Shown here: in pieces, positions 9,867-40,047 of the stretch | How the letters are laid out: each line of letters opens with the position of its first letter | Numbering within the stretch: position 1 is the first letter of the stretch | Assembly (NCBI GenBank): GCA_051294905.1 | Contig: CM119373.1 | Span: forward strand, 30,318,001 to 30,382,000 | Source of the DNA: Botryllus schlosseri | Taxonomy: Eukaryota | Length of the DNA stretch: 64,000 nucleotides | Direction: 5' to 3' | Position numbers and translations under genes: made by a program | Notes under the pieces: generated by a model | What the model saw: only the letters and a program-made list of their open reading frames with translations | What the model was told of the DNA's origin: nothing | The model's database searches: none

Positions 9867-10104
9867 CATGACTCAGCATATTTCGAGTTACGAGGTTTCA
9901 GTTTTTTCCGTTTACGCCCATTACGTAAAATCCTTCACTAGATACCTATTACAAACGAAGCACCGCCATTCATTTATGCTTCTTTACATAGCTATCTTAC
10001 CATGACTCAGCATATTTCTAGTTACGAGGTTTCAGTTTTTTGCGGTTACGCCCATTACGTAAAATACTTCACTAGATACCTATGACAAACGATGCACCGC
10101 CATT
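9867..10104. repeat. Direct duplication (~105 bp, period 134) in the 3' non-coding end of the retroelement
   Basis: catgactcagcatatttc...gcaccgccatt at 9867 and again at 10001. Each copy contains a TGACTCA (AP-1-type) motif. Confidence 0.9.
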
Positions 10105-10250
10105 TTATTTTTTGTACGCCCAATACCTATCACAATGTTATTCCAAAAATTACCAAATTTGTCACACCGCATTTCAATTCTTCCCTATAACAGACTATAA
10201 AAATCACGCATTTATCTCAAAATCTCAAACACCCATTCTTACCTTCAGAT

Positions 10251-13200
10251 TTAGTCATTCTCCGTTGTGTTCCGTATTACTCTTATCGCCATCCATTGAC
10301 TTGTTCCGTTTCGTCTCCTCGTGTTCCTCATACGACTTAAGGTTCTACGTCGACGACACCTTATACAACCTACCCATAACACAATCAACAGGGCAACCAA
10401 CCCTGTTACCACCAATATTACAACCACTGGTTCCATGATAGGTATCAATTTTGCACCTTCCATAATAATCCTATCGATCAAGGATAATTCTCTTACCTTA
10501 TATCCACCTTCCATCATCACCAGTTCGTGCAGCCATCGAGTATAGTTGTAGTCTACGAAATCTGTGGTTGTCTTTCTCACGGGGGCTCTTGAAAGTCGGG
10601 AATATTCAGGTTCGGGTGATCCCAACCTTTGGTTTTCCTGCCCAGGCAGAGGTGATGCGCCAGCCATCGTTGACTCCAAGGTAGTATTCATTAGCTCGAC
10701 ACTGCTCGAGGACGAGTCGTCTTTGCCGTCCCCTGTTGAATACAAAACAGTTGTTTCGGTACTTACCCTGTGGTTGTGGTCCGGGTTTTGGTAGTCCGTC
10801 CCGATGTCGACTCCGTCATCATCTCTGGAGACCTGCAGAGCATCTGCAGTGGTCACCGGATGCACTCGCGTTGTTGTGGGTTCCTCACCACCGATTTTTG
10901 TCGTTCCCTCGGGCCGGTTACGCGTGCCACTTGGCAATTGTTGCTTCCCATGAGACACATCAGTTCGTTTAACAGTTTTATACCCCCCTTCCTGTTCAGC
11001 CGACGATTGCGATCGTTTAACTTGCACCAGCGTTGTTTGCATCCGCCATCCCAAAGTTCGATGTGGTAGATGTCTCAACGCTGTAGTCTTTGGTACTTTC
11101 GTTGTCAGCCGTTCCACGTTCACCAAAGGGACGACGGCGTCTTCCTGATCCCTTGGAGTCTCGCTCGTTTCGGTAGTGTTGGGGAGAGGGCTAGTCGTTA
11201 CATAGGCAGTTCTACTTGCCTCGGGTGTTGTATTACCGCCTACATGTCGATCGGAGGAACCCTGGTAGGAAACCGTAGTTCCTGCAAAACCGTACCAATC
11301 AGTCTCTACTAACCTTTGGTCGGTTATTTTCGTTTGCGTGGTGGTCTCGTGAGTCATTCTTCTGGTAATTATCGTCTCCGCCGATTTGTTTTGGCTCGCC
11401 AATTCCTTCCCCCGTCTCATGACTTCCTGGTGCGCGGACGGGAACCTTGGTAACGACATTGCTTCAGTGGCAGTCGTTAGCGTTTCCCAAGCCGGAGACG
11501 GTGTCGAGCGGTTGTTTGCTGGTTTCCTTTTTTCACTTGGTGTTACGCCACGCCCATTTCCCAAAGCTTCTGTGTTTGTACTGCCCACCATCATCGAAGT
11601 AGTTTGCGGAACTTCGGGGGTCCATGTGATCCTAGCGTGATGGTTTCCACGGTCATCAGTTGCGGTTAACATCACCGTTCGAGCGGTGGATCTCTCCCCC
11701 GCATTATTCCTATAGGCATATGGCGTATAGACCAGGGAACCCTCACAAAACGTCCCCCGATAGATCCATCGAGACTGAAATAACTTTTCGTCCCCCACTT
11801 CTGCCTGAATTAGCTTTTGTGTGGCCATATAATCCAGAAGTATCGTATTTATTAATTTTACTTGTTCCACTAATGTCGGTCGTAGGGTAAGGTTATACCT
11901 AGTGGATAACTCCTCAAGTTGTCCCCGCGAGACGGGTCTTTCTCGCCGCGTTTCTATGCCTCCCCTTATTCGAACCTTCAGTTGTGACAGTTGTTTCTTT
12001 ATCTCTTCTACGTATTGTACCCCAAGACTGGATAGCCAGTTTTTGATACCCCCCCGTCCATTTCCATCGGGTGTCTCCCGAAACGGGGATAGTATAAACG
12101 TTTCCCACCCTTTTGAAATCAAGCAGGAAGTTTGGTTACCCAGTATTGGTAAATGCATTTCCGTCCGCGTTCGGTTTTCAGGGGCAGCAATTTGCATTGT
12201 ACCTCGCCGGGGGTCCGCAAACACGGCCCGCCCCTCGAAAGGGTCGTATAACACTCTATTGAATATCAGGGCTGTTTTGAGATCTCCAACAGCCGTTGAA
12301 CAAACTTGCCTATCTCCCTTTAGCTCGCACCGCGAACTATTATGCAAAAGAACTGGGTAAGGGTCATACATTGTCATGCCTGAAGGTTGGGGTTTTGCCA
12401 TCGTGCGGAGGAATATCGCATCGGTCTTTCGTCCGTCGAACATCACATACCAATGTTCCGTATATATATCGTTCCTTGCTTGTAGCCATACCAGATTCTC
12501 GCTTATCTTTGGCAGAGGAGCTCTATCGGGCCATTGATTACTAGAAAAGGTTCTTCGCCTATCCGGCGGGTTTCCCATAATACCGGGATCGACTTCCTGT
12601 ATTACAAAATCTAGGGATAAGAAATTCTCAACCGGTTGTTCCCCCACGAAGTAGCACTCTATACAAATTACTCTACTCCGACGTTCTTTGTGAACAACAC
12701 AATGGCTGAATCTATTCTGTCCGATATCCCATCCTCCATGACGCCCGAACCGATAGCGACAATTTGCTTCCACCGTTACATATTGTTCCAACAGGTTTAT
12801 GATCATTGTCTTATATACGGTTAGTCGTTGTAAAGTCTCAAGGGGTAAAGAATACAAGACTCGGGTTTCTACGTACCTCCAAAGATGTATCACTCCCAGT
12901 CTGCCGTTTCGTTGGTATTTTATTTTTTGAGAATAGTAGTCAGTAGGGTTCAGATCCGGCAATATCCACGACTCAGTCCGTCTACACACACACTCCCGTT
13001 CATACGCCCAGGTTTCATCCCAATACCTGGCGTTTTGGGATCCTATGGATGATATGGGTGCCAGTAATTTGTTTAAACTTTGCGGTGCGGCTTTCAACGG
13101 ACCAAACGCCGAGTCGTCAACCTGTATCTGATAGCGACGTCGAATGTCCTTTCGAGGCCAGTCCCCTCCTAACATAAAAAGCCGTGACAAGGGTACCCTT

Positions 13201-13388
13201 TGCGGCTTTGGGGGGACGTCGAAAGGTCTCCATCCCGTAAAATTAAAGTCGTCGATGGACCCCACGGTCATGGCAGATAAGGGTAGTGGGTTTTCGCCAG
13301 TTTGGGCTTTCACAAAACAAGCCCACTGGATTAACAACAGTAATCTTTGTAGTCCTTTCCATTTGTACAGGTAGTTAATTATTGGCAT
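10251..13388 (-). CDS. Second envelope-type glycoprotein (Env surface-domain paralogue + mucin stalk + TM), 1045 aa
   Basis: Signal-like N-terminus. Blocks align with Env (RYW....ER.C.CRR, D.(I/V)IQE(I/V)D, YD..PV, LK.A...V.(F/Y)DP). S/T-rich stalk, TM VVVILVVTGLVALLIVLWVGCI and basic tail. No furin-plus-fusion-peptide motif. Confidence 0.85.
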   Translation of the reverse strand: MPIINYLYKWKGLQRLLLLIQWACFVKAQTGENPLPLSAMTVGSIDDFNFTGWRPFDVPPKPQRVPLSRLFMLGGDWPRKDIRRRYQIQVDDSAFGPLKAAPQSLNKLLAPISSIGSQNARYWDETWAYERECVCRRTESWILPDLNPTDYYSQKIKYQRNGRLGVIHLWRYVETRVLYSLPLETLQRLTVYKTMIINLLEQYVTVEANCRYRFGRHGGWDIGQNRFSHCVVHKERRSRVICIECYFVGEQPVENFLSLDFVIQEVDPGIMGNPPDRRRTFSSNQWPDRAPLPKISENLVWLQARNDIYTEHWYVMFDGRKTDAIFLRTMAKPQPSGMTMYDPYPVLLHNSSRCELKGDRQVCSTAVGDLKTALIFNRVLYDPFEGRAVFADPRRGTMQIAAPENRTRTEMHLPILGNQTSCLISKGWETFILSPFRETPDGNGRGGIKNWLSSLGVQYVEEIKKQLSQLKVRIRGGIETRRERPVSRGQLEELSTRYNLTLRPTLVEQVKLINTILLDYMATQKLIQAEVGDEKLFQSRWIYRGTFCEGSLVYTPYAYRNNAGERSTARTVMLTATDDRGNHHARITWTPEVPQTTSMMVGSTNTEALGNGRGVTPSEKRKPANNRSTPSPAWETLTTATEAMSLPRFPSAHQEVMRRGKELASQNKSAETIITRRMTHETTTQTKITDQRLVETDWYGFAGTTVSYQGSSDRHVGGNTTPEASRTAYVTTSPLPNTTETSETPRDQEDAVVPLVNVERLTTKVPKTTALRHLPHRTLGWRMQTTLVQVKRSQSSAEQEGGYKTVKRTDVSHGKQQLPSGTRNRPEGTTKIGGEEPTTTRVHPVTTADALQVSRDDDGVDIGTDYQNPDHNHRVSTETTVLYSTGDGKDDSSSSSVELMNTTLESTMAGASPLPGQENQRLGSPEPEYSRLSRAPVRKTTTDFVDYNYTRWLHELVMMEGGYKVRELSLIDRIIMEGAKLIPIMEPVVVILVVTGLVALLIVLWVGCIRCRRRRTLSRMRNTRRRNGTSQWMAIRVIRNTTEND

Positions 13389-13468
13389 ATTAATTTAACG
13401 TGAAAATCTGTAATTCATATAGTCGTGTTTAGTTAAGCATGAGGGTTAAGAGAGCTTCGGCGGAGAGG

Positions 13469-16042
13469 TTACCGTCGCACTATGGGCCTGCGTTTTTTGG
13501 AGTAAGATGGTGTCGACGTTATGTACATTGTAAGTTGAGAGTTAGTGTTCCGCCTCTGTACGCTAGATTTTAACTTGGGACAGCATAGGCTGTGATACCT
13601 GACACAACAGAATAAGATAATCACCGCACCCAGTACAAGTCCCAAGGGGAGGAGGATGGATCCGAGGCCCGAAAAAATGCCACTCAGTCCACTTCCAAAT
13701 AGACCTCCGATTGCTCCAAGTCCCTTTTGTAGGAGGTTACCGGCACCGTTCCCGACCGATTCTATCAGACTTCCGGCACCGTTCGCCATTTCTTTTATCG
13801 TTTTGCCAAAGTTCTTCATAAATTCTTCCCCCCCAGCAAACTCGAAGGGGGCTACTGACACATTCTCGTAGCGCCAGTCGGAGATATTTACGAACACACT
13901 TCGGTTCAGGTCCTCCTTCCACACCTGTATACTGAGATCCACTTCTTCTTGAGCCTGGTTTAGACGAAGTCTGTTGGCTCGGAGTTTACCACTGATGTCG
14001 TTTGTCTCATTTACATACGTATCTTTATAGGCGGATAACTGCTGAGCATGCTCTCGCACCCGCAATGTCCCTTTCCGAATCTGTGTGAGATAGACCTTAC
14101 TCGAATCGAATATGGACTTTCCGGTCAAATTAGCCAATTCTTTCATGACCAAGCGGTCGACGGCAAGTTCAGCGTCGCTCACCTCTGTGAAACTTTGAAA
14201 CTGAGCGAGGGTAATGGTAGCCTGTCGTAATATCATTTGTCGGTTTTTCTCCACCATCTTCTGCATCCACACCAATCGTCTGTCCGTCAGTGATGCCCTT
14301 ACCTCCATGTTTTCAACCAATCGGTCCAGCTTTTGTTGTTGCGCTGTTTGGATTTGGGAGAGTTCGTTTATCTTTTTCCCTAGTTCGGTTGATCTCTCCG
14401 TAGCCTGGATCATTCTGTCGTTGATTTGATAACTCAGGTCCTCAGTTTCTTTATGCAGTTGGGAAGATACAGTTGCGACAACAGCGACAACTGACACGAC
14501 GGCAAAGATTAGTGCCAGTAGGCCGAAGAGGAATCGTTTACGTCTACGTTTCCCCCCAATCCTCCTATTATTACGTGCGATGTCCCCTTTTATTTCTATA
14601 GGCCCTCCCGGAAAACGGGGTCGGTTATGCTCAGGGTCGAAGTGTACCTGATCCCAAAAGGCCGCCTTCAACTGAGACCCCCCGACCGGATCCTGACAGC
14701 CGCTACCACTTATCCGCCCCTGACACTTGGGATCATCCGCAACCAAAGAGGGGTGCTTCCGCCAAACGGGTAGTATGTCGTAAGGTGCGGATGGTCTTTC
14801 GGAAGGTCCGTCAAACAGGTTGTCCCAATCCAGGCCTTGGTCATCTCGACCTTCCCAGTTTGGTAAGGACGCCTGTATCCATCTAATCCTTCGAGGAAAC
14901 TTCGTTGTGGGCAAATCCCCCCATCTACTCGTGTTCCCGATCGGCCAGAGATTACACGATGGGGGATGTCCAATGTCGCGATGGCCTTTCCCTTTCAATT
15001 GCTGGAAATCTTGCCAAAGGTATTCATAGTTTTCCTGGGTGATCAGCCCTGATGTATTTCGGCAGTTTAGCATGTGGTACCACTCACGTTCCCACGCAGA
15101 ATCCGCACGGACTGTATCTATTTCCTGTATTATTATATCCGCTTGACTCGGTTCCAAAGCAGAGATTATCCCTGTGATATCGCAAAATACGCATTTGCCA
15201 CGAGACCCTGATGATGACGATACTAAGCGTCTGGTTGTCGTGCCGGTCTTCAAGTCATAGGTCGTAGAGTAAGTTTTGGACCAAAGTCGATTTTCCGGCC
15301 AGCAGTGTGCAATACTCGAGCTACTGGCGTTGTATTTATTCCATTGATCTACTTGGGTCCAGTTCCACGTATCTTTTGTCATGCGCTCTGTTCTGCAAGT
15401 CGATCTCACCGCCGAAAAACCCGCGAAGGTTCGTAACATGATCAATTTGAATTTGGTCATCGCCATTATAGTATCGTTCACATGGGAATCACCGTCCACG
15501 CCAAACGCAGACTTCCATCTCTTCCTAGTGGCTTCCCAGGTCTCTTCCCAAAACCACCGTATCCTGACCCCATGCCCTATTGGGCGTACGAACACAGTTT
15601 CTTGGTCAAGAACGGCAAATGTTAGGTTTGGCGAAATTTGGCCTAGTTTTCGTCGGCATAGGCAGGTTCGTTCAAAGTCCCGTACATTCGACCAATATCG
15701 CCCTTGCGGGAACGCCATTTGCTGCAATGACACCCGTTCGGCCACCACGTAACCGAAAGATTCACTATGAAAGAGTGTTGGTCGCCTATACACGTGACGA
15801 TTCCCTGTCTTATTGAAAGCGCTCATTAGGTCGTAGGTTTCCCATTGCGTATTATTCAGCCGAACCCAGTCGTCAGGTAGTGAGCCGTTGAATTCACCCA
15901 GGGTACCCTGAGTAAAGGTTCGGGCCCTGTTTGCTACAGTATCTCCGGATCTTGGCACGAAGTCCGCCGCCTCAGACAACAAGCAATCAGATGTGCAACT
16001 GAAACCAATAACGACAGGCAGAATATAAATAGCGTAGTCCAT
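13469..16042 (-). CDS. env: Envelope fusion glycoprotein, class-I-like
   Basis: First in-frame ATG (MDYAIYILPVVIGFS) is signal-like. Many N-x-S/T sequons. Polybasic KRRRKR (14534-14551) is followed directly by hydrophobic FLFGLLALIFAVVSVVAVVATVS. Heptad-rich helical region, Gly-rich pre-TM segment, TM ILLPLGLVLGAVIILFCCV and short tail. Confidence 0.9.
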   Translation of the reverse strand: MDYAIYILPVVIGFSCTSDCLLSEAADFVPRSGDTVANRARTFTQGTLGEFNGSLPDDWVRLNNTQWETYDLMSAFNKTGNRHVYRRPTLFHSESFGYVVAERVSLQQMAFPQGRYWSNVRDFERTCLCRRKLGQISPNLTFAVLDQETVFVRPIGHGVRIRWFWEETWEATRKRWKSAFGVDGDSHVNDTIMAMTKFKLIMLRTFAGFSAVRSTCRTERMTKDTWNWTQVDQWNKYNASSSSIAHCWPENRLWSKTYSTTYDLKTGTTTRRLVSSSSGSRGKCVFCDITGIISALEPSQADIIIQEIDTVRADSAWEREWYHMLNCRNTSGLITQENYEYLWQDFQQLKGKGHRDIGHPPSCNLWPIGNTSRWGDLPTTKFPRRIRWIQASLPNWEGRDDQGLDWDNLFDGPSERPSAPYDILPVWRKHPSLVADDPKCQGRISGSGCQDPVGGSQLKAAFWDQVHFDPEHNRPRFPGGPIEIKGDIARNNRRIGGKRRRKRFLFGLLALIFAVVSVVAVVATVSSQLHKETEDLSYQINDRMIQATERSTELGKKINELSQIQTAQQQKLDRLVENMEVRASLTDRRLVWMQKMVEKNRQMILRQATITLAQFQSFTEVSDAELAVDRLVMKELANLTGKSIFDSSKVYLTQIRKGTLRVREHAQQLSAYKDTYVNETNDISGKLRANRLRLNQAQEEVDLSIQVWKEDLNRSVFVNISDWRYENVSVAPFEFAGGEEFMKNFGKTIKEMANGAGSLIESVGNGAGNLLQKGLGAIGGLFGSGLSGIFSGLGSILLPLGLVLGAVIILFCCVRYHSLCCPKLKSSVQRRNTNSQLTMYITSTPSYSKKRRPIVRR

Positions 16043-16188
16043 TGAGGTGGTATAGGCGTCGGTCCCCAATGCATAGGCTTACTATTCTATATTGAATATG
16101 ATTTAATTATTGTCTGCAAAAATAGAAACATACATTGTCCGGTCTCTGGTTAACTTCCTTTCTTTATGGTGAAAGGCTACTCTGGGCT

Positions 16189-17238
16189 TTACTGAGGATT
16201 ACCTTGTGTGTCAGGAATCTGATCACTAGGGTCGTCATTATTATACCGCGGGTCAAGAGATATCGTTTTCAACAGAGCCCCAAACCTTTTTTTACGGGGG
16301 TATCTTCTCTTCCAAAGCCACTCCCCCACATAATCGGCTAGTAAATGACGTGCTAGACCCCTCGATCTGTGTAAATGATATTTCAGCGAGCTCCAGCAAG
16401 CCTCTAAATCATTGGTATGAACGCCCTGGGCAGATTTAAACGTGGTGGCGTGGTCAACTGATCCATGTTTATAGCCCTGCCCCCAACTTTCAATGCCCTT
16501 ATACGATGGACAGCCATCTGTCAGAATGGTCGAACCTCTGGCTACATTCTTAATTATAAGTCTTTTCAGAACGTCCGCTGTTCGGTCAGATGTGATCTCC
16601 ACAAACATGTCACCGGTACCTCGGTCCAGGCCACCGAAAGCCCAGACAGCCTTCACTGCTTGTTGACCGCTACCAGCTGCCCGTTTCCGTTTGGCCAAGT
16701 GGGTTTCGTCCAGGATTACAGTTCGGCCAACCCCGCCTAATTTCCGTTTACGTCTTTGTATGTAAGCAGAGCACATCTTGCGCAGTTGTCCAGACCATTC
16801 TACCGTAGTACGTGCGCTGATCTCGGCCTCATGGGCCATTTGAATTTGTAGAGAGTCTTGGGCCCAAAAATAACTCAATACTAGTAGCTGGGGCAATCCA
16901 AGTTTGCTCTTTGAAAAAAATGAGTACTTGCGGATAGTAGCAGTGGTCCTACAAGATGAGCACCTCCATCTCCACCCATCCGAAATTCTCGCGGTAGTCC
17001 GTTCTTCTTTCATCAAACTCGAACATTTTCTGCAAGTCATTTGTTTTCTCAGTAGACCCCGACTTCGTAAAAAAGGTATGCAATCACGTGTATGAGGTAA
17101 GGCTCCCGTTTCCACCAATCGCAGTACGTTGTAATCCTCGACGAAGGAGTCTGAAAGGTAATAGAGAAAAGTACAAGTTCCTCCAACGATCGATGGCTTT
17201 ATAACAGTTAAATCTTGATGGCTGCATCGTCCCGCATC
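16189..17238 (-). CDS. Merlin/IS1595 (ISXO2-like) DDE transposase, in frame with pol
   Basis: Zn-ribbon CRKC...WRCSSC, HTH-like segment, VILDETHL, WAFGGLDR, ILTDGCPSY, H.SVDH and VHTNDLEACWS. The frame is open from the pol TAG (17239-17241) to the stop at 16189, with no ATG near its start. Confidence 0.9.
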   Translation of the reverse strand, partial: DAGRCSHQDLTVIKPSIVGGTCTFLYYLSDSFVEDYNVLRLVETGALPHTRDCIPFLRSRGLLRKQMTCRKCSSLMKEERTTARISDGWRWRCSSCRTTATIRKYSFFSKSKLGLPQLLVLSYFWAQDSLQIQMAHEAEISARTTVEWSGQLRKMCSAYIQRRKRKLGGVGRTVILDETHLAKRKRAAGSGQQAVKAVWAFGGLDRGTGDMFVEITSDRTADVLKRLIIKNVARGSTILTDGCPSYKGIESWGQGYKHGSVDHATTFKSAQGVHTNDLEACWSSLKYHLHRSRGLARHLLADYVGEWLWKRRYPRKKRFGALLKTISLDPRYNNDDPSDQIPDTQGNPQ

Positions 17239-20200
17239 CTAGGCCATGTTCTCCATCAGTATACACTCTGACGGTATAGGCCCCTCGCACAATACTACTT
17301 CGCGATTATGCGACTGTAAGAGTCGTAGACCTATCCTTCTGAGATCGCTCGCTCTCATTCTCAGAACTGTTTTACGCCCACGTGTCTTTGTTGTGTCAAC
17401 TTTACTCAAATGGACGAACCGCCGGTCCATCCTGCGTAATTCGGTATTCATGATTTGACGGGCAGTTTCATCAGTCGTTATGTGATACAGCATGCCATCG
17501 CCCAAGTATTCTTCGTACGGAGGTGGCATCCCTTTGGTGTGCCCGTGTGCTGCAGCCAGGCCTTCATTTGACATCACTGCCCTGTTGCAATTTGCCATGA
17601 TATCTTTGATTTTAGTTATCCCGAGGTCTTGTCGCAGCTTGTCATTGATTATTCCGTGAACTTCCTTCCAGGAGTGGTATCCATCGACAGAGTTTGCGCA
17701 ATACTCGTGTCGACAGTGGAACATCAGTGCTCGCTGTATTTTCTCTTGTTGAGATTCCTTTTGCCCCGGGAGGGTGGCCCAGACATGCGGATCATCATTC
17801 CCCGCCGCCATTTCCATCCAATAGGATCGGGACAATCCATCCGACGTAAACACTTGTAACGTGCTTAAATGGATTACCTCTTTTATCTGAAATCCGGAGA
17901 GATGGTTTAGCCACCTTTGAATCAATGGCTTTGGACTCGGGTTTTTCGCTTCATCCGTCATTCTTTTCAGGAGCCCAAAAACTCCCATGTTGTCAGTAAT
18001 TATAGTGAAGGGTAAGGCGCGCAGCATCGACTGCCATTTCTCCACCGAATCCTTCAGGGCTTTAAGCTCTTTGGTGCATGGGTCATAGGCTTTCGCCGTC
18101 GAAGTTACCCACTTTTGACTGTAGTAAGCGATCGGATACACCTCTTTGAAAGGGGGTCTTTCCCCCACATCCGTTTGGAAAATTACGGAGCCGAATCCTA
18201 CATCTGATGCATCAGTTTCCACGAAAATAGGAAGTCCTGGATCCAGATGATACAATACCTTGGTACTGTCGAGTGAGGCTTGAGCTATTTTGTAGTCTTG
18301 CAATAATTCTTCGGTCCAAAGCACCGGTGTTATTTTTCCTCGAGTCGCTGGGACTTTTCCCGTTAGCGCATCAAATTTTGCCAACTTCAAGCTCAACTCT
18401 GGGATGTGCTCCGAGATGTAGCGTAGAGCGCCAATCCATCCACGTAATTCATATATATTTCGGGGTGGTGAAAGCTCCCGCAGAGCCCTTATCCTCTCGG
18501 GCTGGACCTCGATTTCTTTTCCCGTCAAGGTCGCTCCTAGCAGATTTACTCTCCGTTTTCCAATAAAGCATTTATTGATGCTGAGCGTCAATTTCATTTT
18601 AGCAAGTTGTTCAAATACCAGCCGCAGAAGCAGCAAATGGTCTTCTACCGTTTTTGTGCTAAGGAAAATGTCGTCTATGTAGGCCTCCATAGGCGTCGCA
18701 TTCTCCTCATCCGATCGGCCATTTTGCTTCATGTGTTGGCGATACTTTTCCGTGATGGGTTTCACCACGCATTCTTGCATGTTAGCGCTCCAAAGAGCCA
18801 CAGCGGTCTTCAATCCCATCACCATCTTGCGCCACCTTACGTGCATTCCTTTGATTGCTATCCCCACATATTGCTTGGATCTTTCCGTGATATCCATGTG
18901 GAAGTAGGCTTTCTTCAAATCTAGAAGAGAGAGTACTTCTCTACCCTGGGCGAGTTGCTTTACGTCTGGTACTAACGGTGGAGGGACCTCGATTGACTTT
19001 ATAGCAGCATTCAGGGGCTGGAGATTCTGTACGACTCTCCATGATTGCTTCCACCCGTCCTCTTGCTTCTGTCTTTCATTCATTTTTTGTGGGACGACAA
19101 AGATGGCCAGTTTCCACTCGGCAAATCCTTGCTCGATTATCCCCAGGTCCAAGAAGTTGTCCACTGCTTCTTTTAACGCCTTCGCCTGGCCCTCCCCTTT
19201 CAGATTATAAGGTCCAGAAACAAAAGGCTTAGTCGAGGGATCCTTGAGTTCTATGTCACACTTATACTTCATGGCTTGAGGGGCTCGTAAGTGGCCGCAC
19301 AGGTCCTCTAGTTCAGCTGCGAAAGGCTCATAGACGGCTTTCCAAACTTCGTCGGCAATGATGGTATTTTCCGGGGTCGTTAGATCAGGAGGTTTGTATG
19401 GAAGTTTCGCTAGTGCTACCGATTGTGCACAGAGATTTTCGAGCTCCGTCTTAACGCTAGGACTGGTACTTTGTTGTAAGGTGTACGTGGTAACAGGGCC
19501 AATTATCGGCCGATGCGAATCACGTGAAAAACGGGGTTTTGGTGTTGGTGGAGAGGGGGCGAGGTTCTTCGTTGTCAGCGGGGATTCCCTACCTATCCAA
19601 TCTGACCTCTGAACTCGGTGCGTGCCCACACCTACCGTCACGCCGACGGACTCAATCTCCGCCGGGGGCCCTGTTTCTGGGGAGACGTGCATCTTAAAAT
19701 CCCCAGACTCCTTGTCGGACGGTCCTGGACATACGTCCGGTTGACCAACAATAGCTGCTTCGTTTGAACCCTTTGGGAAGTTACTCATAACTGTGGCTGT
19801 CGTCCTGCATCTTTGGGCCGAATTGTTACAGTTATTCGGACAAGTGCATCCACGAGAGCTTTCAGGACCAGTTTTCTCGTACAGGTCCTTATTTACGTCA
19901 GCCGGGATTCCGCGCTCGACGTCTTCATTAATGGTGCCAGCAGGGATTCCTGTCTCGACACTAGGGGTTTCCCGTAGGTTTTTTTCGACGTTAGTGGTAT
20001 TTACCAACCCGTCGTCCGCGCCAGTGGCGATTGCCATCTCGACACTTGCGCCAGCGGCGACGGCCGGCAATGATGACCGGCGCGCCGACTCGACGCTTAT
20101 CTGATTTGCAGCTTCCATCAACCCATCGTCGGTAGCAGCGTTGCAAGGACTGTTTCCGACTCTGGTTCCATCCCGTCGATCGCACGAGATCTCGTCATGT

Positions 20201-20709
20201 AGTGTTACTAAAGACAACTCTTCGTTTGCATTAGACGGAGTTTTGAATTCAGTCGTTATGTTCGGTAATTGTTGTACCTGATCAATCCATTTTAACCCAA
20301 TAATATTGAGAGGGACTCCTTTCCCGGTTGCAAATGGAACCGGTAGTCCATCGAAATCAATTATTACCAAGGAGTCAACGTGGGAAGAGCCCCCTATGCC
20401 GCGTAATTTCATGTCTAAGGGTTGTCGCTCCTCCCAGCTTCGTGGGTATTTGGTCTTAACAACACTTTTCATTATTAAATTGGGGATGCTTCCCGTGTCG
20501 GCCAAGAATTTAGTTTCCGTTGTGGTGTCAACCAAGTACAAGAGCCGACCGCCGAATAACTCCGTAAAGTCTGGCTGTAGTGGGTTATCCGGTGTATCAA
20601 GAAATGTAAATAGGGGTAGAGAAGCATTATGTACAGTTTTTGCGTGTTGGGGTAATAAGTTATCTGGGAGCTGATTTACCGGATCAATCAGCACCCCCAG
20701 TCGTTTTTT
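17239..20709 (-). CDS. pol: Pol polyprotein: aspartic protease, spacer, reverse transcriptase, RNase H, Tpt1/KptA-like domain; no integrase
   Basis: FLADTGS and NIIG (retropepsin). LDLKKAYFHM, MGLKTA, YIDDI and KC.IG...V.LLG (RT). TDASD.GFG, AYYS, ELKAL, TDN and DGLSR (RNase H). C-terminal CRH...HGHT...LYHIT...RRFVHLS...GPIP. No ATG start; entered by -1 frameshift from gag. Confidence 0.95.
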   Translation of the reverse strand, partial: KKRLGVLIDPVNQLPDNLLPQHAKTVHNASLPLFTFLDTPDNPLQPDFTELFGGRLLYLVDTTTETKFLADTGSIPNLIMKSVVKTKYPRSWEERQPLDMKLRGIGGSSHVDSLVIIDFDGLPVPFATGKGVPLNIIGLKWIDQVQQLPNITTEFKTPSNANEELSLVTLHDEISCDRRDGTRVGNSPCNAATDDGLMEAANQISVESARRSSLPAVAAGASVEMAIATGADDGLVNTTNVEKNLRETPSVETGIPAGTINEDVERGIPADVNKDLYEKTGPESSRGCTCPNNCNNSAQRCRTTATVMSNFPKGSNEAAIVGQPDVCPGPSDKESGDFKMHVSPETGPPAEIESVGVTVGVGTHRVQRSDWIGRESPLTTKNLAPSPPTPKPRFSRDSHRPIIGPVTTYTLQQSTSPSVKTELENLCAQSVALAKLPYKPPDLTTPENTIIADEVWKAVYEPFAAELEDLCGHLRAPQAMKYKCDIELKDPSTKPFVSGPYNLKGEGQAKALKEAVDNFLDLGIIEQGFAEWKLAIFVVPQKMNERQKQEDGWKQSWRVVQNLQPLNAAIKSIEVPPPLVPDVKQLAQGREVLSLLDLKKAYFHMDITERSKQYVGIAIKGMHVRWRKMVMGLKTAVALWSANMQECVVKPITEKYRQHMKQNGRSDEENATPMEAYIDDIFLSTKTVEDHLLLLRLVFEQLAKMKLTLSINKCFIGKRRVNLLGATLTGKEIEVQPERIRALRELSPPRNIYELRGWIGALRYISEHIPELSLKLAKFDALTGKVPATRGKITPVLWTEELLQDYKIAQASLDSTKVLYHLDPGLPIFVETDASDVGFGSVIFQTDVGERPPFKEVYPIAYYSQKWVTSTAKAYDPCTKELKALKDSVEKWQSMLRALPFTIITDNMGVFGLLKRMTDEAKNPSPKPLIQRWLNHLSGFQIKEVIHLSTLQVFTSDGLSRSYWMEMAAGNDDPHVWATLPGQKESQQEKIQRALMFHCRHEYCANSVDGYHSWKEVHGIINDKLRQDLGITKIKDIMANCNRAVMSNEGLAAAHGHTKGMPPPYEEYLGDGMLYHITTDETARQIMNTELRRMDRRFVHLSKVDTTKTRGRKTVLRMRASDLRRIGLRLLQSHNREVVLCEGPIPSECILMENMA
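20664..20709 (-). promoter_or_regulatory. -1 programmed ribosomal frameshift signal (gag-pol)
   Basis: A_AAA_AAC heptamer in gag phase (20709-20703). It is followed by the hairpin CUGGG-GGU-GCUGAUU / AAUCAGC-U-CCCAG (20700-20664). pol is in the -1 frame. Confidence 0.85.
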
Positions 20710-23546
20710 GAGAGTCTCAAGCCTTGTTCTAGTTCCTCATCCGTCCAATGCGAGGCGTCATAGCGACGTGGAGGACGGCGATATAGCGGTTCCGTCCAGG
20801 CCACTCGGCTATTGCCCTGGTTCGGTTGTTCAGGTGGACCCTGAGGACCCCACTGATCCCTATCATGCCAGTGGGTTCTATCTCTATTTTTTGGCCTAGA
20901 GTCATAATAGGCCTCGCACAAGGCAGTTCTCTGTGTCAGAGAGGGAGAACCTTGGGTGGCCAGGTATCGGTCGAGGTCCGGGACCGTCAATATGTTATTC
21001 CTTGCAAGGAAAGGCTCCCAGTTGCGTTTTGTGGACTCCTTAACGCGTGGGGGTACCGGTCGTATTCGTTTGCGAACTACCCAACCTAAGGTATCATCCT
21101 TGGCAATCACCTCCTCATTTAGCCAAAGCACGAATTTTGCCACGCAATTACGGGATTGGTGTCCCGGGGCCTTACAATAATAACATACGGATAAGGACTG
21201 CCCCTGAGGGGGGTTCAGATACAAGCCTAATGGGGCGAAGATGTTGGGGTTCCCCAGAAAATTATATCTCTCACCTTGGCTCTCCGCGATGCGGAGGGCT
21301 TCCTGACTGCTAGACGGCGTGATTTCCTGGCTGTCCCCGCCGATTCCAGAGTCCTGTGTATTCATCATTCGAGGTCTTCGGTTCGAAGTACTTGGCCCCT
21401 GACTTGTCTGAGGAGATCTGGAGTTCCGTGTTGGTGGAACGTTCGGTCCATTCGATGCGTTGCGCCCATTTTGTGTTCGGGAAGGTTTGGCCCTGGGAGC
21501 CGGGCCCTGTCTGCCAAACCCATTTCCACTTATTACATTGGTAGGAAAACGGTTGGTCTTTGCGCCGCGAGGAGGGCCACGTCGTGGCTGCGAAGCTTGC
21601 CCGGCGCTGACGGGCTGCCGTGGCGACATATTCCCGGACGGTCTGGGTGGTGTCCCTTCGATCATGTGTGGAGGTTGTCGGGGTGAGGGTGGTTGCACCA
21701 TCGGAGGTGGTGATGTAGTCGGTGGAGGTGGAGTGTTTAATCGCCCATCTTCACCCCCGTGAGTAGGGTAACTGTGCATCATGGGTCCCGCCGGCTGAAC
21801 ATTATATATATGTACAGGTGGTAGGGGCGACGTTGTTTCGCGCGTCTTTCTGACTTCCCGAGCGGTGGGACGCACCTCTTGTTCATCCAAAAACTCAGAA
21901 TTCCAGTACAACTGTAAATCCTCCGCCACGTCTTGCCAGGGCCTGCTATCCCATCCCCGCATTAGCAGTCTAAGTGCTTCTGGTAATCGTTGTCTTAGGT
22001 TTCGGAAAAGCCGCAGCCCATCCGGATTCTCCTTGATTTCAGCCTCCATGTCTATCTCTAGTTGTTTTAGGGCGCTGTTCAACAGCGGAAGAGGTTCGTC
22101 TTCCCACTGATAATTCCTACGGAAATCGTTGATGACCTTTTCATTGTTAACCAAGCCTTGCGGGTTGGATAGCGACAATGATTTCATGACCGAGACCCAT
22201 TTCGCATTTCCCGAGTTGGTGTTGAAGAAATTCCCTAGCTGATTAGCTTGTTTGAGGCGGCCCGCACTTCGCAACTTCTTCTGCATGGCATTGGCCAGGA
22301 TTATATCTGTATCAGTGTCACCCTCGCCGTGTCGTATACGTTTCATCGTATTAGCCATCCACTTTAGAAGGGGCATATCCCCAGGGTCCATCATTAGCTG
22401 AAGCATCTCCTTTTCCGACTGGAACCTTTCGGGCGTAGTTAACACCGGGTTCACGGCATCATTCCGTGGTTGATCTCGTGGAAGTCTCGGCCTCCCTTCG
22501 CTCTCTCTCGGAGTAGATGCGTATCGAGGTAACCTGAGGTACTCAGAGATGTCTGACATATTCTCTTCAGGTTCGATTGGGTTGGGCCGACCAGAGTCTC
22601 GCTGAAGCATGCGTGTGGTCTCCCGAATGGCCTCCCGCGCCTCCGTTATTTGTCTACCCAATCTGTCCAATTGGGCATCAGTATCTTCACCAGAGTCCTC
22701 AGGATCGTCGCTACCGTCTTGTCGGTAGTTCGTTCTCCCTTCTTGAAAGGTAACGCGTCTTGTTGGAGTGCTGGCCGCACCTTGTGTCCTGGTTCGGGTT
22801 CCTTCAGTTGCCCGTTGATCGCCGAGCCATGCCCCGAGCCGTTCTCGAGCGCGTGCATAGCCATCGTCCGAATCGGTGTCGGTTCCGGTTTCCCTCAGCC
22901 GGTATAGACTGGGTGTATCTGCTAGGTTCCCCCTCCGTCGTCCGTGGCGTGTCCCATTTCGAACCGGGAAGCATGGAGTCGTTCCTGGGCGGGAATCTGA
23001 CGGCGACTCCGGCTTGGAACCTGGTAACGTAGGGTAGACTGCCGTCACAGTATGGCAATCCAGGCCCTTTTCGACTGTAAACGTGGGTAGGGGCGCTGTC
23101 GCCCTGGGCGGTTCCCCAACGGGTGGGTCATACGCCGGTGGAGGTGCTGTAGCCATTACGGACAGAGAAGGTGGAGTCGGTGGTTTATCCCCAACCACCT
23201 GTGCATGGGCTTTGCCCAGCTCAAATTCCGATTTCAAGATTTCATTGAGGACTTCAGTAGAGACTTTCCCGCCGACCTTCGAAGTGGCATCACATACCGC
23301 TTTCAGGTCGGCTTGAGCTCGTCTGACTTCCTTTTTGGCCTTTTCCAGACCCTTCATTGTCTCGGGCAGAGTTGATTTGACCTCTTTTAGTACTTTCGTT
23401 TGGTCAGCCACGTCTTTTGCCAACTGTCTTTCTTGTTGTCTGACGTCTTCGTGGCGTTTTTGCGTGGCTTTCAGCAGCTTGATGCCCTGCTCGAGCTCGC
23501 CTGCCGCCTTTGACGACTTACTCTTCTTTTTAAATAATTTTAGCAT
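20688..23546 (-). CDS. gag: Gag-like polyprotein
   Basis: Basic N-terminus, coiled coil, PPPAY late-domain-type motif, central helical (capsid-like) region, Pro-rich region and CYYCKAPGHQSRNC (CX2CX4HX4C) knuckle. Lies directly upstream of pol. First ATG at 23546. Confidence 0.9.
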   Translation of the reverse strand: MLKLFKKKSKSSKAAGELEQGIKLLKATQKRHEDVRQQERQLAKDVADQTKVLKEVKSTLPETMKGLEKAKKEVRRAQADLKAVCDATSKVGGKVSTEVLNEILKSEFELGKAHAQVVGDKPPTPPSLSVMATAPPPAYDPPVGEPPRATAPLPTFTVEKGLDCHTVTAVYPTLPGSKPESPSDSRPGTTPCFPVRNGTRHGRRRGNLADTPSLYRLRETGTDTDSDDGYARARERLGAWLGDQRATEGTRTRTQGAASTPTRRVTFQEGRTNYRQDGSDDPEDSGEDTDAQLDRLGRQITEAREAIRETTRMLQRDSGRPNPIEPEENMSDISEYLRLPRYASTPRESEGRPRLPRDQPRNDAVNPVLTTPERFQSEKEMLQLMMDPGDMPLLKWMANTMKRIRHGEGDTDTDIILANAMQKKLRSAGRLKQANQLGNFFNTNSGNAKWVSVMKSLSLSNPQGLVNNEKVINDFRRNYQWEDEPLPLLNSALKQLEIDMEAEIKENPDGLRLFRNLRQRLPEALRLLMRGWDSRPWQDVAEDLQLYWNSEFLDEQEVRPTAREVRKTRETTSPLPPVHIYNVQPAGPMMHSYPTHGGEDGRLNTPPPPTTSPPPMVQPPSPRQPPHMIEGTPPRPSGNMSPRQPVSAGQASQPRRGPPRGAKTNRFPTNVISGNGFGRQGPAPRAKPSRTQNGRNASNGPNVPPTRNSRSPQTSQGPSTSNRRPRMMNTQDSGIGGDSQEITPSSSQEALRIAESQGERYNFLGNPNIFAPLGLYLNPPQGQSLSVCYYCKAPGHQSRNCVAKFVLWLNEEVIAKDDTLGWVVRKRIRPVPPRVKESTKRNWEPFLARNNILTVPDLDRYLATQGSPSLTQRTALCEAYYDSRPKNRDRTHWHDRDQWGPQGPPEQPNQGNSRVAWTEPLYRRPPRRYDASHWTDEELEQGLRLSKNDWGC

Positions 23547-23599
23547 TTTTCGCACAGTTCATGTAACTTTTGATTGCCTGTATTTTGGTCCCGTACCTT

Positions 23600-23935
23600 T
23601 TATTGGCTAGGGGGAGTACCGTTACGGATTAGATTACCCGCGGACGTGGTTTTGTTGTTCTCGATCACTCGCCCTCGAGTTGCAGGTACGGAATATCTTC
23701 CGAAGAAAACTGGGTCGGTGTCGTTGGCGATTACCACAGCAAATCCGTTGCGTGGGACAGTGAGGGCTTCGGCCGTTGTAGTGACGTCGTTAGAGAGGTC
23801 TTCAGGAGTTGTCGTAGGAAAGAATACCGGCACGAGGTGTACGTAGACCGATGCCAATGTTATAAGCAGAGATATCACAGAAGTGATTACCGTCACGCCG
23901 AGCACGATTTTCACGAGGGTCGTCCTTGCACACAT
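23600..23935 (-). CDS. Small leader-encoded membrane protein (111 aa)
   Basis: ATG-initiated ORF between PBS and gag. One hydrophobic helix, then a Thr-rich tail with NDT, NKT and NGT sequons. Not in frame with gag. Confidence 0.6.
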   Translation of the reverse strand: MCARTTLVKIVLGVTVITSVISLLITLASVYVHLVPVFFPTTTPEDLSNDVTTTAEALTVPRNGFAVVIANDTDPVFFGRYSVPATRGRVIENNKTTSAGNLIRNGTPPSQ

Positions 23936-23964
23936 TAATAGGTCAATGTTTTTACACCGGAAAT

Positions 23965-23982
23965 ATCCCAGTGGTGCCTCCA
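23965..23982 (-). promoter_or_regulatory. Primer-binding site complementary to tRNA-Thr
   Basis: Minus strand TGGAGGCACCACTGGGAT. 17/18 match to the 3' end of animal tRNA-Thr(AGU), ...AUCCCAGCGGUGCCUCCA, recalled from the vertebrate sequence. Canonical position upstream of gag. Confidence 0.8.
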
Positions 23983-24199
23983 GTAGTGTCTTTATAGTGC
24001 AGCCCCAGTAACGATTGTTATGCGGGTCGTCTACACTTGGTTCGGATTACTTCGCGGTGAGGAATTGACCTTCTATTGCACTGTATTGTCCAGACGACGT
24101 CCGTAGATATTGATTGAAGTAGCGGTAGTTGCGATAGTTGCAGTAGTTGTATCTTTGAGCATCAGCCAATGACCCTTAGGTCCAGTGTTCTAATCTAGC

Positions 24200-24610
24200 C
24201 TTATATAACGTGTAAATAAGCCTTACTTAATACAACCAAATACTCCAATCATTATCATGCAGACAGAATGAGGTATCTAAGCAAAACTCGGTTAATATTG
24301 GCATATAGAATATCCATCAATTATAACACAAGATAAAGCTTAAACCTATTCATATTCATGCACGATTAAATGTATTTTAAATACTCCAAGGTTTGTTTTC
24401 GCATACAAACAATGCGACGGCCTTTCCTGCCGAAGTCGTATCTTTGAGGGTTTGTTAACACATATAAATAATGTGACGGCCTTTCCTGCCGTAAAATAGC
24501 TCCATGGGTTTGTTTACACATATAATACATGTGACGGCCTGTCCTGCCGTAAAGCAGCTCCAAGGTTAGTTTGCACATATGAGTATGTGCCGGCCTTTCC
24601 TGCCGTAAAG
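24200..24610 (-). promoter_or_regulatory. Putative 5' LTR/U3 region: TATA-like box plus four ~58-bp tandem repeats
   Basis: Minus-strand TATATAA near 24202-24208. Tandem units (24384-24610) with core atg(c/t)gacggcctttcctgccg. Promoter function is inferred from position only. Confidence 0.55.
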
Positions 24611-25218
24611 TTCATTCATGACCTATCGCTACATGATACACTATTCAATCACAATAGTCATGCACGAACCAATTTTTTAATTACAGTCTGTTATATCTCT
24701 GCGTTCCTTTGTATCGGTGTATATAAGCTTTTTATTCATTCGTACGTACCGTGTCTCACAGACAATCGATCTGATTTACCACGAATCTTTAACTCTACAC
24801 ATGCTCCAATAAGGTAGAGGTTCCTAGCTTAGTCTAAGGGTGCGTAGCTAGTTATAACGCCTAACTCCGGGAGGTTCCAACATTAAGGACTTTGTATCGT
24901 TGACCCGATTAACATGGCCATATGCCAATTAAAGTGCACTTGATGATACTACCCTTAACAAGGTGTTGCTTACTCGAACACTGTTAGATACCCAGGGTCC
25001 CTTTTACGGGTTTCTGGAGAAATCCCTAACCATTTCTAATCCTAAGCTTCTATCCCGCTAGGGTGAAGGGTCCCGACGCTAATATAGGGCGTGGTCGGTG
25101 TATAACGCCTATGTAAAGCCTACAGACATAGTACTCGCTATCATATTACTGTAGTAACAACCAATCATTCACATTATAAATGTTCACTAACCCATACACA
25201 TATCTACGTCATAAAATG

Positions 25219-26100
25219 TTAGCGCCATTTTAAAGCAACCTGATGGTATTGATCAAAGATACAGTGAAGGCAGCGCTTGAACAAAATGGCGTCACTATAC
25301 AATAATACATCAAAGTAACCATCTCGTGAGAATACCAATGTCCTGTTATGACTCACGCGTCTCGTCATCATGCCGCAGATTGATTCATGTCGTTGTTCGT
25401 CAAACGCACCCTCTCCGACCGCCATCATCGTACGTTCGGAACATATTTGGCAAACGCACGCTTGGGTACTCCGTCTCGTGCATCTATTTCGAACCCGGTT
25501 TCTTCAACTCCCTTGATAATGAAACGATTCTTCTGCGTATCTTTCCTTGATTTTGCAGCCGTCTTGATCGTCTCCTTTCTCCGCTGTCTTCAACGCGACT
25601 TCTTGCGGGCATTGTTTGGCACGTTCCAACCTTTGGTTCACTGGTCCTTGCTGAGCAGTGATTGATAGTGCCGGATTTCCTCTCATCTCGTTCATTTGAC
25701 TTCATTAAGCCCTAGATTCTATCGAGGGGAGCAGTTTTTCGGGACTGTCGAATAGTAATTTTAGAGTTGGTACCACCAAGCCGTTCATTAATGCCAACAG
25801 AATGTCCAGTTCATATCGATACTCTCATGCCATTTCATCACTTCAGTCAGTCTTATTATGGCCTCATTGCGAGCAGGGCAATAAATCTTTGGCATGTTTT
25901 CGAGACGCTCTTCTCGTCATACCAGTTGTAGATACATTCGATGCGCACAGGGAGGACATTAAATACACACATGTCGGAATATTGCGTCATTTGCTATCGT
26001 AACGTTGCCGAAATACAATAATTTGCATGCACGTACTGATCATGGTGCCATAAGTGCACTTGTCAGACACATCCATTTCGTGAAACGAATGTGCAAACAA
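25219..26100 (-). pseudogene. Decayed intronless coding-like region of unknown identity
   Basis: Several short minus-strand ORF pieces in different frames that read as one interrupted protein. No motif recognised. Confidence 0.3.
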
Positions 26101-26337
26101 GGCGGGTCTTATTCTAATGTCCTACTCGATCATCGACACATCAGTTTCGAAAAACGAATGTGTGGACAACTTCAACCATGGGTTACTTTTCTAAGGTATT
26201 TATATTAGCAGCACTGGCCTGAGGTATTCCTAATGTTATAGGCCTATTATTTCCGGTTATAATGTTCATTTTTATTCAACCTATGTAGTGCCACAGCAAC
26301 TTACAACGTAGCTACGTTGTAAATCGCTATGGTAGTG

Positions 26338-26563
26338 CCTTAAACGTTTTGGAATATCTGTCGGTCTTTCACCAGGGTCTACCACCGAGGTACCGATCTA
26401 CATTAATTATATTAGCCCTAAACATTTTGGAAAATCTGTCCGTCTTATCCAGGATCTAACATCGAGGTACGGATCTATATCCATTGTGGATATTGTCCTA
26501 AACATTTTGGAAAATCTGTCCGTCTTATCCAGGATCTAACATCGAGGTACGGATCTATATCCA
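26338..26563. repeat. Tandem repeat, three ~80-bp units
   Basis: cctaaacattttggaaaatctgtccgtcttatccaggatctaacatcgaggtacggatcta at 26417 and 26497, with a diverged unit at 26338. Confidence 0.9.
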
Positions 26564-26716
26564 GTTTTTTAAACCTTTTTTCATATTTAAAAAATTCGAA
26601 ATTCTTATGATTTCAAACAATCTTGATTTCAAACAATCTTCGTTATCATGATAAATACGGGGTCTTTTAACTATCGTAATTTCTGCACTTGATAAATTTT
26701 TACGAATCGAAATGCT

Positions 26717-39500: not shown

Positions 39501-40047
39501 ATGAATAACCCAACTGAACCGAACAGTGAATCACAGTTGCCACTGGGATATTTCGGAAATAAACCAGATGTGGATGCCAAATAAACCCAGAAAAACTCAC
39601 TGGATTCATTAATATTCAGCCATACAGCTCAATTCGATACTTATATGTGCGATTATTATTCCACAGTAACTGCAGTGAGAGCAATATGTGCGGACACAAC
39701 GACGTGATCAATAGAAATTCGATTTGTACCAAACGGCAAATGGCCTGAAGTTCAAATTTAACATTGTGCCATGCCTGTATTTGGAAAGTAGTTCCTAGGC
39801 ACTGAATATAGGTTTTTCAGACCTGCATCTCATACAAACATGCCAAATTTCAACCAGGAGCCTACTCAGTTCCCCATTTCGTCGAATTTCTCCCTACGAT
39901 ATAGGGCTACTACCCTCTTCCACTAGGAGAATGGTCAATTGGTCATTTATTTCAGGTCCAATAACACCTACCGTATTTATCTATTAATACATAGGATTGT
40001 AACTAATTGATGTCGTATTATGCTTCAGGCCTCCGCTCGAATTTAAA

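Follow-up and report, generated by a model that had tools for sequence, protein, structure and literature searches.

Layout of the element

We analyzed a 64,000-nucleotide stretch of the Botryllus schlosseri genome (contig CM119373.1, positions 30,318,001 to 30,382,000; hereafter the window) and found a large element lying within a host MITE, the first half of which ends at about 9624 and the second of which resumes at 48201 (Table 1). A 7-8 bp direct repeat flanks the element on both sides, its ends are short imperfect inverted sequences in which 11 of 16 bases match, and LTR searches of the window sequence found no LTR. The gag, pol, transposase and both env-like open reading frames are all on the minus strand. 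Pfam detected no integrase in pol, and the element therefore lacks the combination of LTRs with an integrase in Pol that marks the Metaviridae and LTR retrotransposons. Judged from its sequence, the element is a giant retrovirus-like unit without an integrase.

Table 1. Features of the element in the window.
Feature	Position	Strand	Basis or remark
Whole element, ~38.6 kb	9625..48200		sits within host MITE
Membrane-protein ORF 2 (ATG 13388) with possible third acceptor (AG 13409-13408)	10251..13409	minus	
env-like ORF 1 (ATG 16042) with second acceptor (AG 16115-16114)	13469..16115	minus	acceptor rank 1/919
IS1595/Merlin-type DDE transposase exon (predicted)	16189..17150	minus	Pfam DDE_Tnp_IS1595, E 1.3e-12, above cut-off
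88-nt spacer, predicted intron 3' end; pyrimidine tract ~17172-17153, AG 17152-17151	17151..17238	minus	
TAG, natural pol end	17239..17241	minus	relatives terminate at same place
pol frame, 1,165 codons: protease-like, RT, RNase H, Tpt1/KptA-like	17242..20736	minus	Pfam
-1 frameshift signal, slippery heptamer 20709-20703 and hairpin	20664..20709	minus	fold and relative
gag, 952 aa, ATG 23546	20688..23546	minus	ORF; homologous to gag of L008 and L009
CCHC zinc knuckle, Gag 788-801	21144..21185	minus	Pfam E 5e-4, narrowly missing the cut-off
Predicted 5' splice donor, GT 21274-21273, gag codon 758, phase 1	21269..21277	minus	rank 1/348
Capsid-like region, Gag residues 370-570	21837..22439	minus	retained in predicted fusion

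Among 80 metagenome loci, only two, L008 and L009, were close relatives, both ending before any transposase; the other 78 were not used. The capsid-like region was 28% identical to the L008 gag and gave ESM Atlas feature matches of 0.90-0.92 to Retrotrans_gag/Ty3_capsid clusters, which serve as a lead only. The -1 frameshift that the original prediction assumed before pol is supported: the heptamer is accompanied by a hairpin (50-nt fold z -2.67, with equally stable folds in 6 of 300 shuffles), and L008 carries the identical heptamer at its gag end. Within pol, the Tpt1/KptA-like domain (~17748-17287) matched Pfam with E 5.9e-5, below the curated cut-off, and five pol relatives were 38-47% identical across residues 440-1165. 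For env-like ORF 1, ESM Atlas matches to class I fusion proteins (0.88-0.90) are likewise a lead only. ORF 2 matched no Pfam family, and the AG that may serve it is one of two in the 90 nt preceding its ATG and is absent from the top 25 of the acceptor ranking.

Transposase homology begins at 17133; position 17118, earlier taken as the start, is an internal TTG codon. The first in-frame ATG lies at 17040, codon 67 past the stop and within the conserved region, confirming that no ATG is near the transposase start. Cys pairs are found near the N-terminus, at 17034 and 16962, and acidic motifs, presumably catalytic as in the family, at 16719, 16530 and 16416; Pfam Zn_Tnp_IS1595 was not matched. 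The closest transposases (P0236, P0237 and P0087) were 64-67% identical to that of the window. Searches of viral contigs returned nothing for the transposase and only seven distant RT loci (22-25%), and the prokaryote genomes searched gave no match. Most of the 137 transposase matches were stand-alone proteins, as would suit an unrelated Merlin transposon inserted between pol and env. This explanation is already largely refuted and we give it hardly any credence: inverted matches on either side of the gene do not exceed 9 nt, the gaps are only 88 nt to pol and ~150 nt to env-like ORF 1, DNA run X1 showed no empty-site joint, and the 7-8 bp direct repeats belong to the whole element.

The stop codon between pol and the transposase

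As predicted, an in-frame UAG separates pol from the transposase, with 349 open codons following in the same frame, down to 16192. The 40 open codons first remarked upon are real but not beyond chance: 550 of 5,000 shuffles were open for 40 codons, and 898 of 5,000 (18%) for 29 codons. Two coding regions share a frame in one case out of three.

Pol of the relatives ends at Tpt1. Ten of 13 related proteins end within 25 residues of the window's pol stop, and none of the 13 runs into a transposase. In L009, whose contig does not reach the transposase, pol closes with two consecutive stops and a third eight codons further on. The suggested check of TAG conservation, made through the relatives' proteins, thus found a shared Pol end, but tandem stops in L009. 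By this comparison, Gag-Pol normally terminates at the UAG, which is not a lesion. Because relatives' Pol ends at the same place, we consider it very improbable that the window's copy descends from a Pol-transposase fusion disrupted by a nonsense mutation, even though the in-frame arrangement would fit, a relative (P0235) with an APE-type endonuclease fused in frame straight after Tpt1 gives a precedent with another nuclease, and, in a single case, the 25-residue tail of P0002 closes on three residues resembling the transposase start. None of 154 proteins matched both halves, and no fused form appeared among 2,035 longer candidates, in what was a weak search, or among the three closest transposases. 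Contig 21 of run X8, which spans the site, differed from the window at only 2 of 430 letters, at places not displayed, and a strong acceptor within a coding linker would lack an explanation.

Readthrough at UAG-G governs gammaretroviral gag-pol. Of the three options originally named (readthrough, splicing and nonsense mutation), readthrough to a product of ~1,500 aa was favoured, with the transposase dose set by a second recoding step after the frameshift. Programmed readthrough yielding Gag-Pol-transposase would agree with the shared frame, the open spacer and the UAG-G, which is the Type III motif in the available part of PMC3159437. The X8 contig runs unspliced across the stop, P0235 suggests that the slot after Tpt1 tolerates fusion, and a conserved stop is compatible with readthrough because gene-called relatives halt at the first stop by construction. 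However, folding of the downstream RNA, proposed as a check, gave z between +0.3 and +1.4 for folds of 50-250 nt, and the best H-type pseudoknot of a simple H-type search was equalled by 99 of 200 shuffles, whereas a hairpin does show at the element's own frameshift site. The open spacer is matched by the 18% of shuffles noted above, its residues are only 11% identical, and the open stretches upstream in P0237 and P0087, of 53 and 65 residues, bear no likeness to Tpt1. Because of the missing 3' structure, the unconserved spacer and the tandem stops of L009, readthrough is little supported and we hold it to be improbable; a reading with double recoding, frameshift plus readthrough, and with it a recoding control of transposase dose, is less likely than splicing. 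The splicing option fared better, with gag and not pol as the partner.

Predicted splice sites before the transposase and in gag

The strong 3' splice-site-like stretch described earlier is present: its AG ranked second among 919 AG sites in 9,800-25,000, although this and the other ranks are approximate, the matrices being approximations with none trained on the host. The 30 nt upstream of this AG are free of AG, and residue identity among four relatives rises from 11% in the spacer to 76% just downstream of the acceptor. Six codons ahead of the first conserved motif, a residue pair fitting NCA|G was found in the window and in all three closest transposases, with a chance of ~0.075 per sequence and ~4e-4 for three if independent, a product that is too small because the sequences are related. 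Among 303 coding columns, 11 fit NCA|G in all four sequences, and none of them had both residues varying. The six residues that precede the relatives' acceptors, which were placed from residues rather than DNA in proteins whose linkage to gag-pol is itself presumed, rank within the top 1-5% for codons rich in pyrimidines. A Met near the site is absent from two of the three closest transposases (three of four counting the window), P0087 having one four codons after it; other transposases have a Met near the same position in 91 of 106 cases, a count that is partly circular because gene callers start at Met and that we left out of the argument. These data are compatible with a phase-1 acceptor register common to the window and its three closest transposases, at the point where homology starts.

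Expression of the transposase that needs no splicing, whether through reinitiation, a non-AUG start, ATG 17040 or a promoter lying within the 3' end of pol, could draw on the in-frame ATA (17202) and ATC (17190) in the spacer and on the X8 depth, which begins at ~18.3 kb and climbs toward the 3' end. But the X8 profile, which we did not count as proof of expression, equally fits 3' bias or assembly loss, ATG 17040 would lose 31 conserved codons, the spacer is unconserved, and the conserved acceptor register and donor would go unexplained. We therefore think such expression improbable.

The predicted donor in gag came first when the 348 GT sites from 24900 to 17200 were ranked on the window alone. 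L008 (rank 1/206) and L009 (rank 2/190) have a matching donor at the same position and in the same phase, and the distance from donor to knuckle is 29.67 codons in all three, that is, in both relatives with gag DNA. Given residues and codon usage, the chance of this conservation is 0.020 and 0.022 for the two relatives. Only one of four shared glycines, that of the donor, has an identical codon in all three sequences, as have 8 of 25 shared residues around the donor. A phase-1 join leaves 320 codons open into the transposase; made to either of the two env acceptors, it leaves 3 and 9. Two other phase-1 donors exist in gag, at 22780 (rank 5/348) and at 23521 (rank 12/348), the latter giving an eight-codon gag leader; it was our first choice and was later demoted.

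All evidence at the acceptor applies equally if its 5' partner is the 23521 leader, the mid-gag 22780 or a trans-spliced leader with a near-cognate start behind it, any of which would yield a nearly free transposase. Both gag sites are in phase 1, 23521 has a perfect intron-side hexamer, and P0087 has its Met four codons past the site. Their ranks, however, fall behind that of 21274, for which alone conservation was found, the L008/L009 comparison not covering the others, and a non-coding leader leaves the kept phase (4 of 4) and the absent Met (3 of 4) unexplained. Another 5' partner is therefore unlikely.

The original prediction called for RNA junctions at 17150. Among the 11 joints listed in four of 24 runs, none touched 17150 or 21274, a further 116 loose ends lying outside the listing, and the acceptor of env-like ORF 1 was likewise without a joint in the same runs. 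X22, the only one of the four recorded as RNA, yielded 0 matching reads of 12.8 million, and no RNA run was listed as containing the element among the 24. Contig 21 of X8 (16851-17280, depth 13.6) runs unspliced across acceptor and stop, and X8 depth was 0 and 0.19 in the two exon-side bins at the donor. X8 and X11 consist of contigs whose kind is unproven, and contigs drop minor forms. Taken together, the runs are a weak junction test.

A proposed Gag-transposase fusion and known systems

The positions and phases of the sites, their conservation in relatives and the open frame after a phase-1 join were computed directly. Because comparative support was found at both the acceptor and the donor end, splicing is the preferred reading: with a probability of roughly 60%, the transposase would be a separate exon joined to Gag by a predicted splice, behind a true stop. 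The host spliceosome would remove a 4,124-nt intron (21274-17151) carrying the entire pol along with the zinc knuckle and the frameshift site, and would join gag codon 758 to the acceptor in phase 1. The predicted product, Gag(1-757)-transposase, would have 1,077 aa, keeping the capsid region and lacking the knuckle. Through the capsid region it could co-assemble into particles and deliver transposase to new cDNA, its dose being set by splice efficiency, independently of RT, with no second recoding step. Such a splice would explain how an element without integrase packages an inserting enzyme.

The integrase of retroviruses and LTR retrotransposons is brought to the cDNA within Gag-Pol; the fusion would deliver the transposase likewise. 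An element that swaps integrase for the enzyme of a DNA transposon faces the same delivery problem, and a conserved Gag-transposase splice would be a concrete answer. If this is true, retroelements could change their integration machinery without rebuilding Pol. We put at about even odds the broader proposal that a giant enveloped retroelement family replaced integrase with a Merlin transposase exon spliced to Gag, that the knuckle-less fusion is packaged from its own mRNA and uncoupled from RT, that the donor is older than the divergence of lineages only 36-40% identical in Gag, and that what follows Tpt1 is a slot in which nucleases can be exchanged, as P0235 suggests.

We found no description of this element type, or of this route of Gag-transposase expression, in the open-access literature. 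Troyka LTR retrotransposons are also divergent virus-like retroelements of aquatic animals, but the available text describes integrase, LTRs, a 3-bp TSD and no env (PMC12440569), whereas the present element has env-like genes and lacks the other three; the Troyka paper does not describe this element. A paper on env-carrying gypsy elements was also set aside, its accessible text containing neither 'transposase' nor 'splic' (PMC13524379). Merlin/IS1595 elements, as portrayed in the accessible part of PMC8101967, have a 24-462 bp TIR, terminal GG and an 8-9 bp target duplication. The DDE_Tnp_IS1595 domain is shared and the duplication is near our 7-8 bp repeat, but neither the gene nor the element is bordered by a TIR of that length with terminal GG, and the transposase here is without its own ATG, lies inside a gag-pol-env unit and has two N-terminal Cys pairs.

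With gammaretroviral Type III readthrough the element shares the in-frame UAG followed by G between coding regions. It differs in that the pseudoknot 8 nt past the stop, which MuLV readthrough requires according to the parts available of PMC3159437 and PMC5778647, was not found here; the stop context is not conserved in L009, and pol of this element is already expressed through a -1 frameshift.

Errantiviruses make spliced env mRNAs and foamy viruses a spliced pol. MuLV env is also made from a spliced mRNA, as the available text of PMC5778647 has it, and an acceptor ahead of each downstream ORF is common to these systems and the window; spliced env and pol exons bring their own start codon, whereas the transposase exon would be phase-locked to Gag. 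[quoted passage not shown] The window shares a predicted in-gag donor, conserved in both relatives with gag DNA, and a predicted acceptor close to the end of pol, in matching phase and with an open fusion frame (relatives' acceptors being read from residues), and its predicted product is likewise a fusion to the Gag N-terminus.

The pol stop and the frame behind it

The pol frame, on the minus strand, runs for 1,165 codons (20736-17242). A TAG at 17241-17239 closes it, after which the reading frame remains open for 349 further codons. Pfam placed RT, RNase H and a Tpt1/KptA-like domain (the last below cut-off) upstream of the stop, with no integrase before it, and an IS1595/ISXO2 (Merlin-type) DDE domain downstream. 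Homology to transposases begins at 17133, and the nearest in-frame ATG after the stop, 67 codons on, is at 17040. The in-frame UAG, the open frame beyond it, the late first ATG and the acceptor AG at 17152-17151 were all confirmed. The openness of the spacer is weak evidence, because when its 29 codons were shuffled 5,000 times, 898 of the shuffles were open as well.

The element (about 38.6 kb, 9625-48200) interrupts a host MITE. It is flanked by a direct repeat of 7-8 bp, and its inverted ends are short and imperfect; an LTR was searched for and not found. The genes are ordered as accessory ORFs, gag, pol, transposase and two env-like ORFs, and gag overlaps pol, with a slippery heptamer at 20709 in the overlap and a hairpin after it (z -2.67; 6 of 300 shuffles). 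The same heptamer lies at the gag end of L008, a related metagenome locus. There is no inverted repeat around the transposase and no joint skipping it in run X1 (contigs, DNA by guess), so the transposase is part of the element; a nested transposon is extremely improbable. X1 depth was severalfold higher at 19456-20237, 20629-21019 and 23757-24900 (reaching 1,685, against about 100 in the env region), and this points to abundant relatives with internal deletions that retain these parts. Neither of the two accessory ORFs scanned, both upstream of gag, gave a Pfam family.

Features in and around the element
Feature	Coordinates	Remarks
Outer shells (three) in which the element is nested	9038-48973, 8885-49772, 3992-50551	inverted ends and 8-bp direct repeats
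Accessory ORFs, 148-218 aa	27223-26717, 34762-34271, 36546-35890, 24046-23600	same strand, upstream of gag
Tandem repeats, periods 134, 58, 80 nt	9867-10104, 24389-24620, 26417-26563	near 3' end and upstream of gag
Env-like ORF 1	13469-16042	signal-like start; basic cleavage-like motif, then hydrophobic stretch; C-terminal membrane segment; resembles class I fusion proteins in the Atlas (0.88-0.90)

Possible nonsense mutation or readthrough at the UAG

Related proteins were collected with Pol residues 440-1165 (five close relatives among 71 matches) and with the RNase H-Tpt1-X-transposase segment (150 proteins listed). When 154 proteins were tested, the pol half was matched by 17, the transposase half by 137 and both by none. 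Thirteen matched the Tpt1 part: seven terminate 2-7 residues past the aligned Tpt1 end, P0005 and P0074 have the same end point in the alignment, P0002 carries a 25-residue tail, P0003 and P0113 end early, and P0099 continues into an APE-type endonuclease. In the DNA of L009, a second related metagenome locus, pol is closed by two successive stops, with a third eight codons on. A 430-nt contig of run X8 spans the stop, with two differences from the window at positions not displayed. The original prediction had offered a nonsense mutation as one option; as none of the tested proteins joins both halves and most relatives' Pol ends near the same place, a lesion in this copy is, by these comparisons, very unlikely.

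P0235 (1,122 aa) and P0099 have a related Pol, PR-RT-RNase H-Tpt1, in frame with an APE/exonuclease III-type endonuclease (Pfam E 1.9e-18), an arrangement of LTR-type RT and LINE-like nuclease, without integrase, on a single contig. The gene models of the distant Pol relatives P0003-P0006 and P0074 start at a Met upstream of the protease; in the window and L008 this Met is missing and a slippery site is present, and the route of pol expression may differ among lineages.

Because gene-called proteins end at the first stop, a conserved end leaves room for readthrough, and UAG-G is the Type III motif. MuLV readthrough depends on a pseudoknot 8 nt downstream of the stop (PMC3159437, PMC5778647). 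However, folds of 50, 80, 119, 120, 170 and 250 nt past the window's stop gave z of +0.3 to +1.4, the best result of a simple H-type pseudoknot search was equalled by 99 of 200 shuffles, and the spacer is not conserved among relatives. The UAG therefore does not group with Type III readthrough sites, and the readthrough that had been proposed is unlikely, though unstructured signals may promote it.

A candidate acceptor and donor

Splice sites were scored with approximate matrices. The acceptor AG ranked 2 of 919 AG sites in 9,800-25,000, behind only an acceptor just upstream of env-like ORF 1. Its exon would begin at codon position 2 and so requires a phase-1 donor. The closest transposases, P0236, P0237 and P0087 (64-67% identity; the only three matches among 6,817 candidates), were examined, each in its own frame, over the stretch that precedes the first conserved motif. 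A residue pair fitting NCA|G stands six codons before the motif in all three, as in the window, and between -13 and +5 no alternative offset suits more than a single sequence; about 7-8% of residue pairs fit by chance. Both residues of the pair vary among sequences, which is true of none of the 11 fitting columns in 303 coding columns. In pyrimidine-rich codons the six residues before the site score among the highest 1-5% of windows, and mean identity falls from 76% in the first 12 conserved residues to 28% in those six and 11% further upstream. Met is absent in two of the three. Such a pattern is what the end of an intron looks like when it is translated in frame, the putative acceptors of the three relatives being deduced from protein. 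Initiation without splicing is quite unlikely.

The best of 348 GT sites in 24900-17200 was 21274, at gag codon 758 and in phase 1. Only two relatives with gag DNA, L008 and L009, were available, 36-40% identical in this region and on contigs that stop short of any transposase. In both, a phase-1 donor lies 29.67 codons upstream of the zinc knuckle's first Cys; it is the top-ranked of 206 sites in L008 and the second of 190 in L009. Given the residues and each locus's own codon usage, the probability of so high a score was 0.020 and 0.022, values whose independence is imperfect since 8 of 25 shared residues keep the same codon. Among four shared glycines in the block, only the donor glycine is encoded identically in the three sequences. 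A phase-1 join keeps 320 codons open at the transposase acceptor, whereas the env acceptors give 3 and 9, so this donor fits the transposase and env RNAs would need another. Other phase-1 gag donors, at 22780 and 23521, score lower; that the same acceptor is joined to a different 5' partner is a less probable alternative.

The predicted Gag-transposase and known systems

Taken together, comparison of sequences gives good support to a predicted spliced Gag-transposase. In the complete scheme, to which we assign a probability of roughly 0.6, full-length RNA would yield Gag and, by -1 frameshifting, a Gag-Pol terminated at the UAG; removal of a 4,124-nt intron would yield Gag(1-757)-transposase of 1,077 aa; and further acceptors would serve the env-like genes. 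Because the fusion would retain the capsid-like region (an Atlas lead) and drop the knuckle, we infer that it may co-assemble into particles and thus bring the transposase to the cDNA.

Coverage of 13200-24900 was checked in four of 24 runs: X22 (raw RNA), and contigs of X11 (RNA by guess), X8 (RNA or DNA) and X1. X22 had no matching reads, and none of 11 joints listed fell at 17150, 21274 or 16113. In X8, the transposase and env1 acceptors were both spanned unspliced and depth was nearly nil on the donor's exon side, which speaks against splicing being predominant in that sample; the test is weak, since contigs lose minor forms, the env acceptor was equally blank, and the output omitted 116 loose ends and 624 difference rows. 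Run X10, of only 2 million letters, contains 47% of the words sampled from 15500-19500.

Literature listings showed no description of this element type or of the proposed Gag-transposase expression route. The transposase gene is not a stand-alone Merlin (PMC8101967) and the element is not Troyka (PMC12440569). In MLV, the SD' RNA, spliced from a gag donor to a downstream acceptor, encodes Gag joined to the end of Pol (PMC2925334, PMC5778647). The predicted RNA resembles it in its gag donor and downstream acceptor, which would give a Gag fusion, but differs in that the partner would be an entire DNA-transposon transposase past the pol stop. Because of that partner, and because the junction is a predicted one, this RNA is not an SD' member in the strict sense.
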